A program made the position numbers and the translations under genes. 33,945 bases of DNA from Myxococcota bacterium (lineage in GTDB: Bacteria > Myxococcota > JACRCW01). How positions within the stretch are numbered: position 1 is the stretch's first letter; every line of letters begins with the position of its first letter. The stretch covers positions 1 to 33,945 of the forward strand of contig JBFMGU010000110.1 in the NCBI GenBank assembly GCA_040752415.1. The letters run 5' to 3'. Shown here in pieces: positions 17,740-25,300 of the stretch. The notes below the pieces were generated by a model. It did no database searches and was not told the origin of the DNA. It saw only the letters and a program-made list of their open reading frames with translations.

Positions 17740-18774
17740 TCACACGAAGTGCTGGAAGCCCCGCAGGATCTCCGCGCCCGGCGGCGGGACGCCCTGGTCC
17801 AGCATGCGCACGCCGGCGGCATCCAGTTGCAGACCGCCCACCACCAGCCGCATTTCCGACGTCACCGTGCCAATCCTCCGCACCTCGCTGCCGCCCGCCC
17901 TGACCACCGCGGCGTGATCCGCGCTGGTGAACAACAGCTCCAGCTCCTCGCCACCGGAGAGGGACAGCGCGCGGGGGTCGCGCGAGGAGGAGAGCGCGGT
18001 CACGCCGGGATGGATGGGCAGGGCGCCTTCGTCCAGCTCCGCGCCCACGTTGCTGGCGACGAGCAGGTGACACAGGTCCTGCGCCAGTCCGTCGGTGACG
18101 TCGAGACACGCGCTGGCCACGCCGCGCAGGGCCCGCCCCAGCGCGCACCGGGGCTTGGGCATGAGCTGGGCGCGGATGGCGTCGCGCAGGGCGGGGTCGG
18201 CGTACTCCTGGAGGAGCGCGGTGACGTCGTGGGGGCGCGAGGTCTGCGGACGGGCCAGCAGTGCCGCCAGGCCCGCGGCGGGGCCGCCCAGGGGACCACT
18301 GAGGTAGATCCCGTCGCCAGCACGCGCTCCGGCGCGGGTGAGCGCCATGCCCGGGGGAACCTGGCCCACGGCGGTGATCGTGATCGTGACCGGTCCGTCG
18401 GTGCGCGAGAGGTCGCCGCCCAGGCAGGTGACGTGCTCCTGGTCCGCCAGCGCGGCCATCCCGCCGGCAAGATCGCGCAGATCCTCGTCGGAGAACGTGC
18501 GGGGCAGGCAGAGCACCAGCAGGTAGCCCACGGGGTCGGCGCCCATGGCGGCCAGGTCGCTGAGGTTGGCGGCCAGGGCCTTGTGACCCACCGCGTGCCA
18601 CGGCGCCCACGACGCAAAGTCCACACCCTCCACCAGCGCGTCGGTGGTCAGCACCACGCGACCTTCCACGCCCAGCACCACCGCGTCGTCGCCGTTGCCC
18701 ACCTCCAGGAGGGGGAGGGTGCGGGTGCTGAGGAGGGATTGCAGGAGGCGGATGCGCTGGAACTCGCCGCTCAT
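17740..18774 (-). CDS. thiL: Thiamine-monophosphate kinase
   Basis: MSGEF..I, GDDAVV, TDALVEGVDF, NLSDLAAMGA, GGDL, DVTDGL, GGEELEL and terminal GFQHF motifs. Confidence 0.95.
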   Translation of the reverse strand: MSGEFQRIRLLQSLLSTRTLPLLEVGNGDDAVVLGVEGRVVLTTDALVEGVDFASWAPWHAVGHKALAANLSDLAAMGADPVGYLLVLCLPRTFSDEDLRDLAGGMAALADQEHVTCLGGDLSRTDGPVTITITAVGQVPPGMALTRAGARAGDGIYLSGPLGGPAAGLAALLARPQTSRPHDVTALLQEYADPALRDAIRAQLMPKPRCALGRALRGVASACLDVTDGLAQDLCHLLVASNVGAELDEGALPIHPGVTALSSSRDPRALSLSGGEELELLFTSADHAAVVRAGGSEVRRIGTVTSEMRLVVGGLQLDAAGVRMLDQGVPPPGAEILRGFQHFV

Positions 18775-21218: not shown

Positions 21219-22670
21219 GTGCGGGTGCCTCTGGCGGTCAAGGTGATGCTCTCCTACGTGGCCGTGATTGCCACCGGAGCCGTCCCGGTCCACCTGAGCC
21301 TGCGCCACGTATTCCAGGCCCGCAGCACCGAGCAGCTGGGGGTTGACCTGCAACAACGGGGCAGGCGCGTGGCGGATCGGTTGAGCGCCGCTCCGTCGGA
21401 GGACCTGGTGCGGGTGGCCATGGAGGCCGCGGCCCTGCTCCCCGAGAACGTCACGCTGCTCTCCCTGGACGGCACCATCCTGTTCGACAACGAGCTGCCG
21501 GTGGGCGCCGCGCGGGAGAACCAGCGGACCCAGCCGGAGGTGGTTGCGGCGCTGCAGGAGGGCGCGGCACTGGCCATGCGGGAGTCGCGCCACACCGGGG
21601 AGCGCACGGTCTACGCCGCCGCCGCGGTGCAGGGTCCCAAGGGTCCGCGCGCCGTGCTGCGACTGGCCGCGCCCACCCGCCCCGTCGAGGCGGCCACCCG
21701 CCTGGCCACCAAGGCCGTGGAATACGGCGGGGCGTTGGCTCTCAGCGCGGCGCTGCTCCTCTCGTTCGTGGCGGTGCTGCGCCTGGTGCGCCCGTTGCGG
21801 CGCATGCGTGACGCCGCCAACGCGCTGGCCACGGGTGAGCTGGCGGTGCAGGTTGACGTCGACAGCCAGGATGAGCTGGGTGACCTGGCGCGCGCGCTGG
21901 AGGCGGTGGGTGGTCAGCTGCGCACGCGCTTTGCCACCGCGGGCAGTGGCGACGCGCTGATGGGCCAGCTGGTCCATGCCATGTACCAGGGCGTGGTGGT
22001 GATGGAGGCCAACGGCCAGGTCACGCACATCAACGGCGTGGCGCGCACGCGGCTGGGACTGCGTGGTCCGCAGGAGAGCGAGCGGGTGGCCCGTCTCATC
22101 AGCTCCCACGCCGTGCGTGAGGCCACCGCGCAATGCGTGTCCGACCCGCTGGGCGTGGACATGCGCGTGCCCCATCCCGTCACCGGCGAGCCCGTGGATG
22201 GCACGGTGGTGGCGCTCAGGCGGCATCACGGTGACCCGCTGTTCGCGCTGATCCTCGACGTCACCGCGGATACCGGCGTGCCCACGCAGGACGTTCCCGA
22301 CGCCGCGGACGTGGTGGCGGTGCCGTTCCGTGAGGTCATGGACCGGGCGCTCTCGTCGGTGCGCGAGGACCTGGAGGAATCCAACGCCACGTTCCAGACG
22401 CCGGATGAGTGGCCCGCCGCCAATGTTGCCGACGTGGGCCACCGCGTCCTGGACACCGTGGTGGAGACGCTGAAGGCCGCGGCCCGCGCGCCCGGTGCCC
22501 AGCCCAACACGCCGCTGAGCGCCAGCATCCAGAACGGCTCGGTGTGTCTGAACCTGCCGGTGACGCTGCCGATCTCCGTCGTGGAGAGGCTGGCGCCGCG
22601 GCTTGCGCCGTTGGGGGGCAAGGTGCAGGTCGGCGGGGGAGGGGTGCAGCTGTGGTTGCCTCGGGCCTGA
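21219..22670 (+). CDS. Membrane HAMP/PAS-like sensor, PhoR-like N-terminus with a degenerate kinase region
   Basis: Two TM segments flank a periplasmic region with PEVVAAL...RESRHTG...YAA; HAMP (RPLRRM...DELGDLA); PAS-like MYQGVVVMEANGQVTHIN; no H-box or N/G boxes. GTG start at 21219 inferred. Confidence 0.75.
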   Translation: MRVPLAVKVMLSYVAVIATGAVPVHLSLRHVFQARSTEQLGVDLQQRGRRVADRLSAAPSEDLVRVAMEAAALLPENVTLLSLDGTILFDNELPVGAARENQRTQPEVVAALQEGAALAMRESRHTGERTVYAAAAVQGPKGPRAVLRLAAPTRPVEAATRLATKAVEYGGALALSAALLLSFVAVLRLVRPLRRMRDAANALATGELAVQVDVDSQDELGDLARALEAVGGQLRTRFATAGSGDALMGQLVHAMYQGVVVMEANGQVTHINGVARTRLGLRGPQESERVARLISSHAVREATAQCVSDPLGVDMRVPHPVTGEPVDGTVVALRRHHGDPLFALILDVTADTGVPTQDVPDAADVVAVPFREVMDRALSSVREDLEESNATFQTPDEWPAANVADVGHRVLDTVVETLKAAARAPGAQPNTPLSASIQNGSVCLNLPVTLPISVVERLAPRLAPLGGKVQVGGGGVQLWLPRA

Positions 22671-22711
22671 GCCCTCCGCCCGTGGTGGAGTGGCGAGTTC
22701 GGAAGCCGGCG

Positions 22712-24268
22712 TTGTTGTCGTTGCCGTCGGTGATCATGCGCGACCGTCGCCAGGTGGAGGTCAAGCAGGCGTACGCGCTGCCGCAGTCGGATGAGCCGCT
22801 GGACTACCAGCTGGACGTCTTCATCTTCCTGCCCCGCTCCATGGGCATGAGCGCGCACAACTACCCGCGCGACGAGTTCTACAACGACTCCACGACGTAC
22901 CTGCGGCTGGACGCGCCCGGTCGCACGCTGGCGGAGCTGGCGGACCTCTCCGACGCGCGCTCCCCGCTGAGCCAGGTCCACACCACGCTGGCGCAACTGA
23001 TGCAGCCGCGCGCGCCGCCCACCGAGCCGCTGGCCGCGCTCTGTCAGCTGCACGCGCATGAGCTGAGCGAGGCGGTGATCAGCACCTGCGTGTTCCTGGC
23101 CCAGAAGGCCCACGACGGGAGCTTCAGCACCGCGGAGACGTACACCGCCGAGGTCAACCGCATGCTCGGCGACAGTGAGCGCGCGCTGGTGGCCATCCGC
23201 CAGGTCCGCGCGGAAGCCGACGCGTTTGGTGGCCTGGTGCACCCCGCCGTGCCGCGCGCGCTCGCGTACGCGGAGGAGTACGCGTCGGCGGTTCTCGACG
23301 AGCAGGTGGCGCGACTGGCGGAGGCCATCAAGGAGAGCCAGGCCCTGCGCGACGGCACCGGGAGCGCGGTGAAGCTGCTCTTGACGCTGGAGCGGTTTGC
23401 CGCGGATCAGTCCAAGCTGCGCCTGGAAGCGGGCTACGCCGTCCCCTGGGATGAGCCGCGCGAGTACTTCACGTACCGACTGGGACTGCTGAAGAAGAAC
23501 CTGCAGCAGGCGCTCTATCTCAACACGCGTGAGCTCCGCGCCGACAACTACCTGCGCAACAGCGCGGCCATGGTGGCGGCGGGCTTGGCGGCCACGTGGG
23601 CGTTCCTGGCCCAGGTGCCCATGCTCCAGCTCGGCGCGGTGGACCTCAACACGCAGCTGTGGCTGCTGGCCAGCGCCGTGGGCGCGTACATGTTGAAGGA
23701 CCGCATCAAGGAGTGGACGCGGGATTACCTGACCCGTCGCCTGCGCTTGGATGACTACAACCGCGTCATCTTCTCCGACGTGCTCGCGCGACTCGGCCTC
23801 AAGGGTCTCAGTGGTCGCGCCAAGGAGAAGGTGCGGTTCGTGAAGCTGGATGAGCTGGACGAGGAGATCCGCGACATCCGGACGCTCCACCGCAGCGTGC
23901 GCGGGACCGGCCTGGAGCTGGAGGAAGTGCTTCACTACCGACGGAAGCTCAGCTTGAGGGCCCCGGAGGGCACGCGGTTTCCGGAAGGCTTTGGCGTGCG
24001 CGAGATCCTGCGCATCAACACGCGCCACTTCACCGCGCGCCTGGACGATCCGCTGGACAACGTCAGCTTCTTTGACGCCGAGCGCGGTGCATTCGCGCGC
24101 GAGGATCTTCCCAAGGTCTACCACGCCAACCTGGTCCTCCGGATCAGCGCGGAGCATTCCCCGGAGCGCTGGATCACGCGCTACCGCATGGTGCTCACGC
24201 AGGACGGACTGAACCGCGTGGAACCGGTGTTCACCCGTCGGGTGGAAGGTAAGCTGCCCAGGGACTGA
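22712..24268 (+). CDS. Uncharacterised protein with a two-helix membrane hairpin
   Basis: Long ORF with coding-like codon usage; hydrophobic segments SAAMVAAGLAATWAFLAQV and LWLLASAVGAYML. Start uncertain (22682, 22712 or 22736). Confidence 0.8.
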   Translation: MLSLPSVIMRDRRQVEVKQAYALPQSDEPLDYQLDVFIFLPRSMGMSAHNYPRDEFYNDSTTYLRLDAPGRTLAELADLSDARSPLSQVHTTLAQLMQPRAPPTEPLAALCQLHAHELSEAVISTCVFLAQKAHDGSFSTAETYTAEVNRMLGDSERALVAIRQVRAEADAFGGLVHPAVPRALAYAEEYASAVLDEQVARLAEAIKESQALRDGTGSAVKLLLTLERFAADQSKLRLEAGYAVPWDEPREYFTYRLGLLKKNLQQALYLNTRELRADNYLRNSAAMVAAGLAATWAFLAQVPMLQLGAVDLNTQLWLLASAVGAYMLKDRIKEWTRDYLTRRLRLDDYNRVIFSDVLARLGLKGLSGRAKEKVRFVKLDELDEEIRDIRTLHRSVRGTGLELEEVLHYRRKLSLRAPEGTRFPEGFGVREILRINTRHFTARLDDPLDNVSFFDAERGAFAREDLPKVYHANLVLRISAEHSPERWITRYRMVLTQDGLNRVEPVFTRRVEGKLPRD

Positions 24269-24271
24269 CGC

Positions 24272-24889
24272 TCACTTGAACAGTTGCAGCGCCTTGTAGA
24301 CCACCTTGGCCACGATGCCGTGCTCGTCGCCACCGGCGGCCGCGGGGTCGGGTGGAGCGGCGCGGGCCGTGGGATCAAACGGCTCCTTGAGGAGCGCCTC
24401 CACGCGCGCCTGGAAGTACTCGAAGGACTCTCCACCCTGGAGCCGATGCGCCACGCGACCATTGCGGTCAACGAAGAGCGTCTCCGGGAATGCCTCCACG
24501 CCCATGGCCTCGCGAAACACGTCGGTGGCACGGGGGAGGGGCAGGGTGAGCTTCTTCTCGTCACGGATGCTGTTGATCCGCGCGGCGCTTCCGGTGCCCA
24601 CCGCCACCACCTTCACGTCTTGGTCGCGGTAGCGCTGGTACAGTCGTTCCACTTCGGGCAACTCCCGAAGGCAGACCGGTCAATACTCGTACCAGATGTT
24701 GATCACCGCCACGTGGCCGCGCAGCTCGTCGGGGGAGAGCGACTCACCGACGCGGAAGCCCTCCAGCGCCGTGAACCGTGGCAGCGCGGGACGACGATCC
24801 GCGGGCAGCAGCAGCAACGACGGCGTGGCGGACACCAGCAGCGGCAACGCGAGCAGGAGCGCGGAGAGGTGGGCGGCGTGGCGAGGCAT
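24272..24889 (-). CDS. Exported TlpA/ResA-like thioredoxin-fold redoxin, probable selenoprotein (UxxC)
   Basis: ORFs 24680-24889 and 24272-24661 are in frame across TGA 24680-24682, giving LRGHVAVINIWYEY-U-PVCLRELPEVERLYQRY...VVAV...AFPETLFVDRNGRV; hydrophobic N-terminal signal or anchor; 205 aa. Confidence 0.85.
24641..24679 (-). promoter_or_regulatory. Putative bacterial SECIS element
   Basis: After the UGA: CCGGUCUGC-CUUCGGG-AGUUG-CCCGAAG. Perfect 7-bp stem, G-containing 5-nt loop starting 16 nt after the UGA, with possible lower-stem pairing. Confidence 0.7.
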
Positions 24890-24936
24890 GGAACCCCCTG
24901 GAGGCGAACGGAGTGTAACGCGTCTCCGTCGGAGGT

Positions 24937-25218
24937 TCAGTAGCCGGCGTTGACCATGCTCTCGGCGAGTCGTTGGATGAGCGTGCGCCGCAGGTCCTTC
25001 TTCAGCCACGCCCGCGTGGTGGCGTTGGGCTCGCTGCCGGTGCGCAGGAGCAACCAGTGCGCGCACATCTCCACGGCGGTCTCAATCTTGCCGGGGTCCA
25101 GCTTGAAGAACTTCTCCCGGCCTCCCTCGAGGAACCAGGAGATTCCATATCGCTCCGCCATGAGGTGCAGGAGGCGACGACCGCGGCGGGCATGCGTGAG
25201 ATCGATGAGTGTTGCCAT
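24937..25218 (-). CDS. Small hypothetical protein (93 aa)
   Basis: MATLIDLTHARRG...AESMVNAGY; coding-like codon usage; fills the gap between bioD and the redoxin gene. Confidence 0.75.
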   Translation of the reverse strand: MATLIDLTHARRGRRLLHLMAERYGISWFLEGGREKFFKLDPGKIETAVEMCAHWLLLRTGSEPNATTRAWLKKDLRRTLIQRLAESMVNAGY

Positions 25219-25300
25219 CTGCCGCCACACTACGGGCGACTTCGTGATCGCTCTAGAAAACGTCCCGGTTGTTGTTTTCTTGCGATCATCAAGCTCGCGA

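Follow-up and report, generated by a model that had tools for sequence, protein, structure and literature searches.

A TlpA-like redoxin gene of a Myxococcota bacterium with an in-frame UGA that is very probably read as selenocysteine

The minus strand of a 33,945-nucleotide (nt) contig from a Myxococcota bacterium (JBFMGU010000110.1, assembly GCA_040752415.1; this whole stretch is hereafter called the window) carries, at positions 24272-24889, a gene for a TlpA-like redoxin that contains an in-frame TGA where the attacking cysteine of such proteins lies. Is this TGA a stop that divides or inactivates the gene, or is it a codon for selenocysteine (Sec, U)? A preliminary description of the locus had argued for Sec, and our analysis points the same way: UGA-70 very probably encodes Sec, and the locus is then a genuine selenoprotein gene. 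The window is contig C14 of an 11.0-Mb draft assembly of 520 contigs, which is 96.8% complete with 4.3% contamination.

The frame opens with an ATG at 24889-24887 and closes with a TGA at 24274-24272, giving 205 codons plus the terminal TGA with the internal TGA in frame, an extent that rests on the translation, Pfam matches and coding score. The minus-strand run TGG TAC GAG TAT TGA CCG GTC TGC CTT CGG GAG TTG CCC was found exactly as quoted in the preliminary description; its TGA is codon 70 (24680-24682), and the surrounding peptide reads VAVINIWYEY-TGA-PVCLRELPEVE. The FPETLFVDRNG strand and the tail GIVAKVVYKALQLFK were likewise both present as described. Also as described, two in-frame open reading frames (ORFs) are split at the TGA: translation table 11 gives one of 128 residues running to WYEY (24680-25066) and one of 129 residues (24272-24661) that starts at the TTG of Leu77. 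A codon-usage log-odds score trained on 459 long ORFs from the same genome was 0.30 upstream and 0.22 downstream of the TGA in the target frame (40 codons each), and -0.44 to -0.82 in the other two frames. Apart from the TGA at codon 70, the frame is free of other damage.

Read through, the two halves form one domain. The Pfam Redoxin family (PF08534) matched residues 46-155 (24425-24754) with 59 bits against a cut-off of 26.6 (6.2e-16), and AhpC-TSA (PF00578) matched residues 37-148 with 52.9 bits against a cut-off of 26; both matches span the TGA. AlphaFold2, given the alignment of 49 sequences described below, modelled the read-through product with a mean predicted local distance difference test (pLDDT) score of 87 and a predicted template modelling score (pTM) of 0.77, the block means reaching 95-98 for residues 51-170, and in the model a strand of residues 60-67 runs into a helix of residues 71-87 immediately past U70. 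A Foldseek comparison with the PDB ranked ResA (1st9_A) first, with a target template modelling (TM) score of 0.87 and a root mean square deviation of 2.0 Å over 136 columns. The next structures were SdbA, DipZ, CcmG and other extracytoplasmic thiol-disulfide reductases (5um7 and 1kng among the matches), and a PDB sequence search agreed (3hdc at 2e-11, plus ResA entries). As modelled, the read-through product is a ResA/TlpA-like thioredoxin fold.

The residues that flank the TGA fall into the active-site pattern of this fold. We aligned 49 sequences, comprising the target, eight subfamily relatives, 17 read-through paralogue-type genes and 23 Cys-type TlpA-like proteins (the relatives and paralogues are described below). 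U70 shares a column with the first Cys of WCxxC in the 23 Cys-type homologues, which bears out the earlier proposal that it occupies the position of the nucleophilic Cys. Cys73 (TGC, 24671-24673), the resolving Cys of the UxxC motif by translation and alignment, falls into the column of the second Cys, and Glu76 and Pro78 fall into the conserved columns of the CxxCxxExP pattern. The sole invariant column of the alignment is Pro135 (24485-24487), the cis-Pro of the thioredoxin fold in AFPETLF. The spacing of U70, C73 and E76 equals the C-x2-C-x2-E spacing of ResA C74, C77 and E80, residues named in the PDB titles 'ResA C74A', 'Cys77Ala' and 'E80Q'.

Beyond the evidence named in the preliminary description, the RNA downstream of the UGA supports Sec. 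A hairpin, CUUCGGG-AGUUG-CCCGAAG, with a stem of 7 bp and a loop of 5 nt lies within codons L74-E79 (24652-24670), as judged by folding and by comparison of registers; it begins 9 nt past the UGA and has a folding energy of -10.0 kcal/mol. In the model of the bacterial Sec insertion sequence (bSECIS) given in section 5 and the Fig. 2 legend of the 2026 review PMC13188914, the loop has 3-9 nt and the upper stem 4-16 bp, one of the first two loop nucleotides is a G, often with G or U after it, and the distance from UGA to loop is 16-37 nt. The target hairpin agrees with the model as given there in its loop (5 nt, A-G-U with G second), its stem (7 bp) and its UGA-to-loop distance of 16 nt, the last being the lower limit of the model. 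Past the terminal TGA (24272-24274) the bases give, by eye, no stem in this register, and we take that TGA as the true stop.

The stem is built from codons that this genome uses rarely: counts in the training ORFs are 1,636 for CTT against 28,535 for CTG, 7,302 for CGG against 20,935 for CGC, 4,073 for GAA against 25,762 for GAG, and 3,648 for TTG. As a control, none of 31 Cys-type redoxin genes in the loci collected has all seven pairs in this register (range 1-6), and three Cys-type genes that encode the identical LRELP have 4, 4 and 1 pairs; both TGA genes, the target and a paralogue in the same genome, have 7 of 7. Genome-wide, only 12 of 261,960 TGA trinucleotides precede a perfect Watson-Crick stem of 7 bp in the target register; eight of these stems have a G among their first two loop nucleotides, and the coding context is convincing only for the target and one paralogue. 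Because this geometry is so rare, chance is a poor explanation for it. In addition, the in-frame TGA of selD in this genome is followed by a stem of equal size and spacing (UGA-N9-GUGGGUC-CGGGU-GACCUGC). By its rare codons, the Cys-gene control, its genome-wide rarity and the selD stem, the stem is selected as RNA. An earlier genome-wide hairpin scan, with 3,492 matches of which 35 passed a filter on the G+C content of third codon positions, was dropped as most of these appeared non-coding.

The paralogue (C57:31551) reads VINLWLPG-TGA-ASCLRELPG, followed by UGA-N9-CUCCGGG-AGUUG-CCCGGAG, and belongs to a family found across the phylum. We searched 401 sampled phylum genomes with the pattern TGA-N6-TGY-N3-CGGGAGTTGCCCG, allowing up to one mismatch. 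Matches occurred in 59 of the 401, a count that includes an unpublished genome (G195) whose locus was left unread and that becomes 58 of 400 when it is set aside, and in 51 of the 172 genomes of the largest family; the reversed control pattern gave 0 everywhere. Each of the 29 paralogue-type loci that were translated has an open frame of at least 66 codons leading up to the TGA and of at least 100 following it; these frames encode a lipoprotein-type signal (with the lipobox Cys in most), the motif W-x-P-x-U-x-x-C-x-R-E-[LF]-P and a complete redoxin domain. Over 30 rows including the target, the stem has 7 of 7 pairs in 25, six in four and five in one. Since the rows are not independent of one another and the pattern itself selected for the four inner pairs, evidence can come from the three outer pairs alone: over 29 distinct rows 97% of their cells pair, whereas sliding the partner column gives 12-57%. 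Changes of both partners occur at each outer pair, 14 cells in total (G-C to C-G, C-G to U-A and U-A to C-G are examples), and the observed covariation score was matched by 0 of 500 shuffles.

The lipoprotein family shares with the target the position of the TGA, the core CGGGAGUUGCCCG, the 9-nt spacing, the RELP or REFP peptide and the Pfam Redoxin/AhpC-TSA assignment. It differs in its lipobox Cys, its W-x-P-[GRT]-U context and its lack of the C-terminal helix, and sequence identity between the target and the family is 23-32%. No NCBIfam model reached its cut-off for the four paralogue-type genes that were scanned. When loci related to the target were screened for one internal TGA, the flagged TGA fell in the CxxC motif at 2 of 23 places, the target and the C57 paralogue; the remaining flags mark terminal stops that lie where the match ends or close by, and we rejected them as candidates.

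The one other genome of the same taxonomic family (G001, 92% complete) gave no selA match, and four further genomes (G002, G003, G327 and G193) each have one. The G001 paralogue (L052, 1567-2325, minus strand) is a Cys form, WLPSCHVC, reading FWLPSCHVCAREVP and carrying a lipobox; a Cys form in a genome without a selA match is what loss or lack of the Sec trait predicts. The corresponding stem of this Cys-form gene still has six of seven pairs in the SECIS register, which could be a relic of a change from Sec to Cys or could be chance. At another locus (G327, L065 516-1413, minus strand) the lipoprotein selenoredoxin gene is directly followed by genes for two small YeeE/YedE-type membrane proteins (Sulf_transp, 30.8 bits, and DUF6691, 145 bits). 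We considered this pair as a functional clue and set it aside: it occurs in 2 of 30 loci, G327 being one of them, and the linkage is not general.

The genome carries the genes that Sec decoding calls for. A check for the machinery, named in the preliminary description as a way to put the proposal at risk, found selA, selB, selD and the Sec tRNA (selC), each above its curated cut-off. SelA scored 531 bits against 268, SelB 283.5 against 242 and SelD 304.7 against 125, selD itself having an in-frame TGA at SGG-U-AAK (C171); the tRNA scored 73.8 bits and was called tRNA-SeC with anticodon tca by ARAGORN. Judged from this gene complement, the genome is able to decode Sec.

The nearest relatives of the target are truncated in their gene calls. 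A HMMER search of 1.84 billion representative proteins returned, as the nearest, eight proteins of 118-230 residues with 38-55% identity, and the N-terminal third is absent from all eight. Six of them begin at query residues 72-81: one (P0075) begins M-C-I-L-E-L-P at the position of Val72, two codons past U70, and four begin exactly at Leu77; a further cluster member (P0156) also starts with MPEV. In the target Leu77 is the TTG inside the hairpin loop, and the starts of the relatives at this position suggest that the same start-capable TTG is present in their genes. The preliminary description had allowed that intact Cys-bearing relatives beside a decaying copy would speak against Sec; instead, eight of eight close relatives are cut at the same place. 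These relatives come from Logan, ENA and JGI assemblies, form singleton or two-member clusters, and are unnamed or called 'hypothetical protein'. In common they have VGTG, AFPETLF-D--GR-A-RL-GG and a Pro/Ala-rich linker, and most of the eight share the C-terminal helix motif H-G-x-x-A-[KR]-x-x-Y.

No full-length Cys protein with this tail was present among the 150 best matches from the 1.84 billion representatives. Apart from the window's own 69-residue fragment, a search aimed at shorter proteins found nothing, and searches for related loci gave only relatives of 30-42% identity in genome contigs and of 30% in metagenome contigs. In a quick tree, the target-type clade (nine sequences) had a Shimodaira-Hasegawa-like approximate likelihood ratio test (SH-aLRT) value of 99 and was separate from the lipoprotein clade (SH-aLRT 93), a tree that leaves the relation of the two Sec clades to the Cys forms and to each other unsettled. 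We regard it as possible, if a shade more doubtful than not, that the target and its relatives form a small unnamed subfamily of exported TlpA-like redoxins that occurs in the Sec form alone. The RELP-encoded SECIS that the target has in common with the lipoprotein family could descend from one old Sec-bearing ancestor, or could be a repeated solution forced by the peptide together with SelB.

Several observations weigh against reading codon 70 as Sec. A 71-nt fold of the region was no more stable than its shuffles (z = -0.67), Rfam had no match at E up to 1 for positions 24200-25000, and the hairpin overlies RELP, which is frequent in Cys homologues, so that conservation of its sequence is in part conservation of the protein. 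The TGA of the orthologues is deduced from gene-call starts rather than read in DNA. An alignment search of 400 other phylum genomes, scoring 10 candidates per genome, found no orthologue of the subfamily, its one find being a paralogue-type gene in G327. Two other matches to a back-translated AFPETLF[IV]D pattern both lay outside redoxin genes. The export signal was judged from hydrophobicity alone, and the neighbouring genes offer no functional clue. Sec insertion at this codon is predicted from sequence evidence, and the TGA at 24680-24682 is read from the assembly. The last two points bear directly on two of the rivals to Sec.

Were the locus a pseudogene, a TlpA-like gene would have been killed by a TGC- or TGT-to-TGA nonsense mutation and would not be read through. 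The step from TGC to TGA takes a single base change, the second genome of the family and the two further genomes of the class yielded no orthologue, and the reliance of Sec incorporation on sequence inference leaves room for such an event. We nevertheless consider it very unlikely, given a frame that is otherwise undamaged with a positive coding score both before and after the TGA, a SECIS-type hairpin that pairs perfectly, is built from rare codons and lies at the correct distance, and the same TGA and hairpin in a phylum-wide paralogue family; independent decay would not yield eight of eight nearest relatives cut at one place. An error of sequencing or assembly, with TGC or TGT as the true codon of an ordinary Cys redoxin, would draw on the draft state of the 520-contig assembly and its 4.3% contamination. 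It appears slightly less probable still, as the error must have hit exactly the codon that precedes a SECIS hairpin, the paralogue and related genes from many independent assemblies also have TGA at this codon, and truncation at this point recurs in relatives from other data sets. The least probable account takes the gene calls at face value and has the locus make two products, a 69-residue exported peptide ending in WYEY and a 129-residue protein starting at the TTG of Leu77. Table 11 does return such a split, and the public gene calls of the relatives show it likewise; however, neither of the two makes up a domain, the break is crossed by the Pfam match, by the predicted β-sheet (strand 60-67) and by helix 71-87, and the second piece would have neither export signal nor active site. 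Set beside these accounts, decoding of the UGA as Sec draws together the alignment of U70 with Cys, the machinery, the truncated relatives and the SECIS hairpin, and the proposal made in the preliminary description is thus supported.

With codon 70 read as Sec, the parts of the protein outside the redoxin domain may indicate where it acts. The N-terminal residues 1-21, MPRHAAH-LSALLLALPLLVSA (24827-24889), form a putative export signal or membrane anchor by hydrophobicity, with a possible cleavage site after VSA: a basic MPRHAAH precedes a hydrophobic stretch of residues 8-21 that lacks a lipobox Cys, and 12-residue windows beginning at residues 8-11 are more hydrophobic than any others in the protein. 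After a Pro/Ala-rich linker, residues 188-204, HGIVAKVVYKALQLFK (24278-24328), are a predicted C-terminal helix on the basis of the AlphaFold2 model (block pLDDT 79-86), the relatives and a hydrophobic moment of 0.40. The export signal and amphipathic tail proposed earlier are therefore plausible, the basis for them being simple hydrophobicity measures and a predicted model. By its recurrence in the relatives, the C-terminal helix appears to be a signature of the target subfamily, and the Pro/Ala linker and basic helix may replace the lipid anchor of the paralogue family.

A working scheme can be built on the gene structure, fold, Cys/Sec alignment, machinery and covarying hairpin described above, with Sec insertion, export, the direction of electron flow, the donor and the substrate modelled on known Sec decoding and on ResA/TlpA/CcmG-type reductases. 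The hairpin 9 nt past the UGA would recruit SelB with Sec-tRNA(Sec), whereby UGA-70 would be read as Sec and not as a stop. The N-terminal hydrophobic segment would carry the protein across or into the cytoplasmic membrane, and U70-P-V-C73 would most likely work outside the cytoplasm like the CxxC of ResA, TlpA or CcmG, with Glu76 in the place of ResA Glu80. The selenolate would attack an oxidised group of the substrate, be it a disulfide, a sulfenic group or another, and Cys73 would resolve the mixed selenenylsulfide. The resulting Se-S bond might be re-reduced by a membrane protein of the CcdA/DsbD type; the genome has a DsbD_TM-family gene (C186, 164.7 bits). The C-terminal helix beyond its Pro/Ala linker may serve to keep the protein on the surface of the membrane, or else as a docking site for a partner.

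The neighbours of the gene include bioA and bioD. On the same strand, bioD is separated from the redoxin gene by a 97-residue ORF (24937-25230, minus strand), which stands 47 nt before the redoxin start codon, and a convergent ORF of up to 619 residues occupies 22409-24268 on the plus strand; neither of these flanking ORFs has a Pfam family. A Shine-Dalgarno-like AGGGGG (24894-24899, minus strand), assigned from the sequence, stands 4 nt 5' of the ATG. No sigma-70-like promoter was found near the redoxin gene, and the single terminator-like site, at 24052-24067 on the plus strand, was no better than shuffles.

Additional in-frame TGA codons were seen in the window and in the wider genome. A Prx/BCP candidate selenoprotein (C390:16513) has FTPG-U-T and an AhpC-TSA match of 128 bits spanning the TGA, and two rhodanese-domain candidates (C39:25525 and C269:798) have an internal TGA six or four residues past a YC motif. 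The codon-score scan that brought up these three listed 261 same-frame TGA junctions, 11 of them with a hairpin, and is incomplete, having missed the C57 paralogue and selD. Within the window, TGAs at ~20223 and ~18783 (minus strand) join long same-frame ORFs of 338, 479 and 346 codons, with coding potential on both sides but lacking a hairpin; most likely each is a normal stop that separates two successive genes in the same frame. The selD profile matches positions 17986-18714 (minus strand) weakly, with 63.9 bits where the cut-off is 125; rather than a second SelD, this stretch probably encodes a different AIR-synthase-related enzyme.

What is gained by the Sec reading is chiefly annotation. 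Standard annotation splits or truncates this gene, and its relatives survive as C-terminal fragments that are unnamed or 'hypothetical'; because the gene calls truncate them, the databases lose both the active site and the export signal. Read correctly, the locus adds one selenoprotein to a genome whose other candidates are SelD, a Prx/BCP, two rhodanese-domain proteins and the lipoprotein redoxin. The signature UGA-N6-UGY-N3-CGGGAGUUGCCCG finds the lipoprotein gene in about one in seven of the sampled phylum genomes and can be used directly for re-annotation. The practical value is thus re-annotation: Sec in place of the nucleophilic Cys of an extracytoplasmic reductase is expected chemistry and introduces no new principle.

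Among characterized systems, ResA of Bacillus, TlpA, CcmG/DsbE and SdbA share with the target the fold, the [CU]-x-x-C-x-x-E spacing, the cis-Pro loop and an N-terminal hydrophobic anchor or signal, but have Cys where the target has Sec; moreover, the target does not lie beside cytochrome c maturation genes. Its scores fall far below the NCBIfam cut-offs for ResA (NF002854, 58.9 against 170), TlpA (NF047696, 30.6 against 230) and DsbE/CcmG (TIGR00385, 28.8 against 123.15), and it is therefore an orthologue of none of them. The ResA-like WAxxUGC selenoproteins of NF041054 are, like the target, ResA/TlpA-like selenoproteins; against this profile of 354 positions the target scored 21.1 bits where the cut-off is 300, and its motif is WYEYUPVC rather than WAxxUGC. 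No NCBIfam model reached its cut-off for the target.

A literature search, which covered listings and passages but no supplements, found no paper describing the target subfamily. The general kind is known: Table 1 of PMC13188914 lists a predicted family 'Prx-like thiol:disulfide oxidoreductase' (PF00578; UxxC, UxxU), and the Sargasso Sea paper (PMC1088965) reports a thiol-disulfide isomerase-like selenoprotein family with a UXXC motif. UxxC selenoproteins that are TlpA-like or thiol-disulfide isomerase-like have been catalogued since 2004-2005. The preliminary description had called the target's subfamily poorly described, which is apt for the particular subfamily with the C-terminal helix and does not extend to the catalogued UxxC TlpA-like kind. 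As described in these sources, the catalogued families resemble the target in their TlpA-like thioredoxin fold with Sec first in UxxC, a SECIS right after the UGA and widespread Cys homologues; by the same descriptions, the target is set apart by its WYEY-U-PVC context, its non-lipoprotein N-terminus and its Pro/Ala linker with the C-terminal helix.

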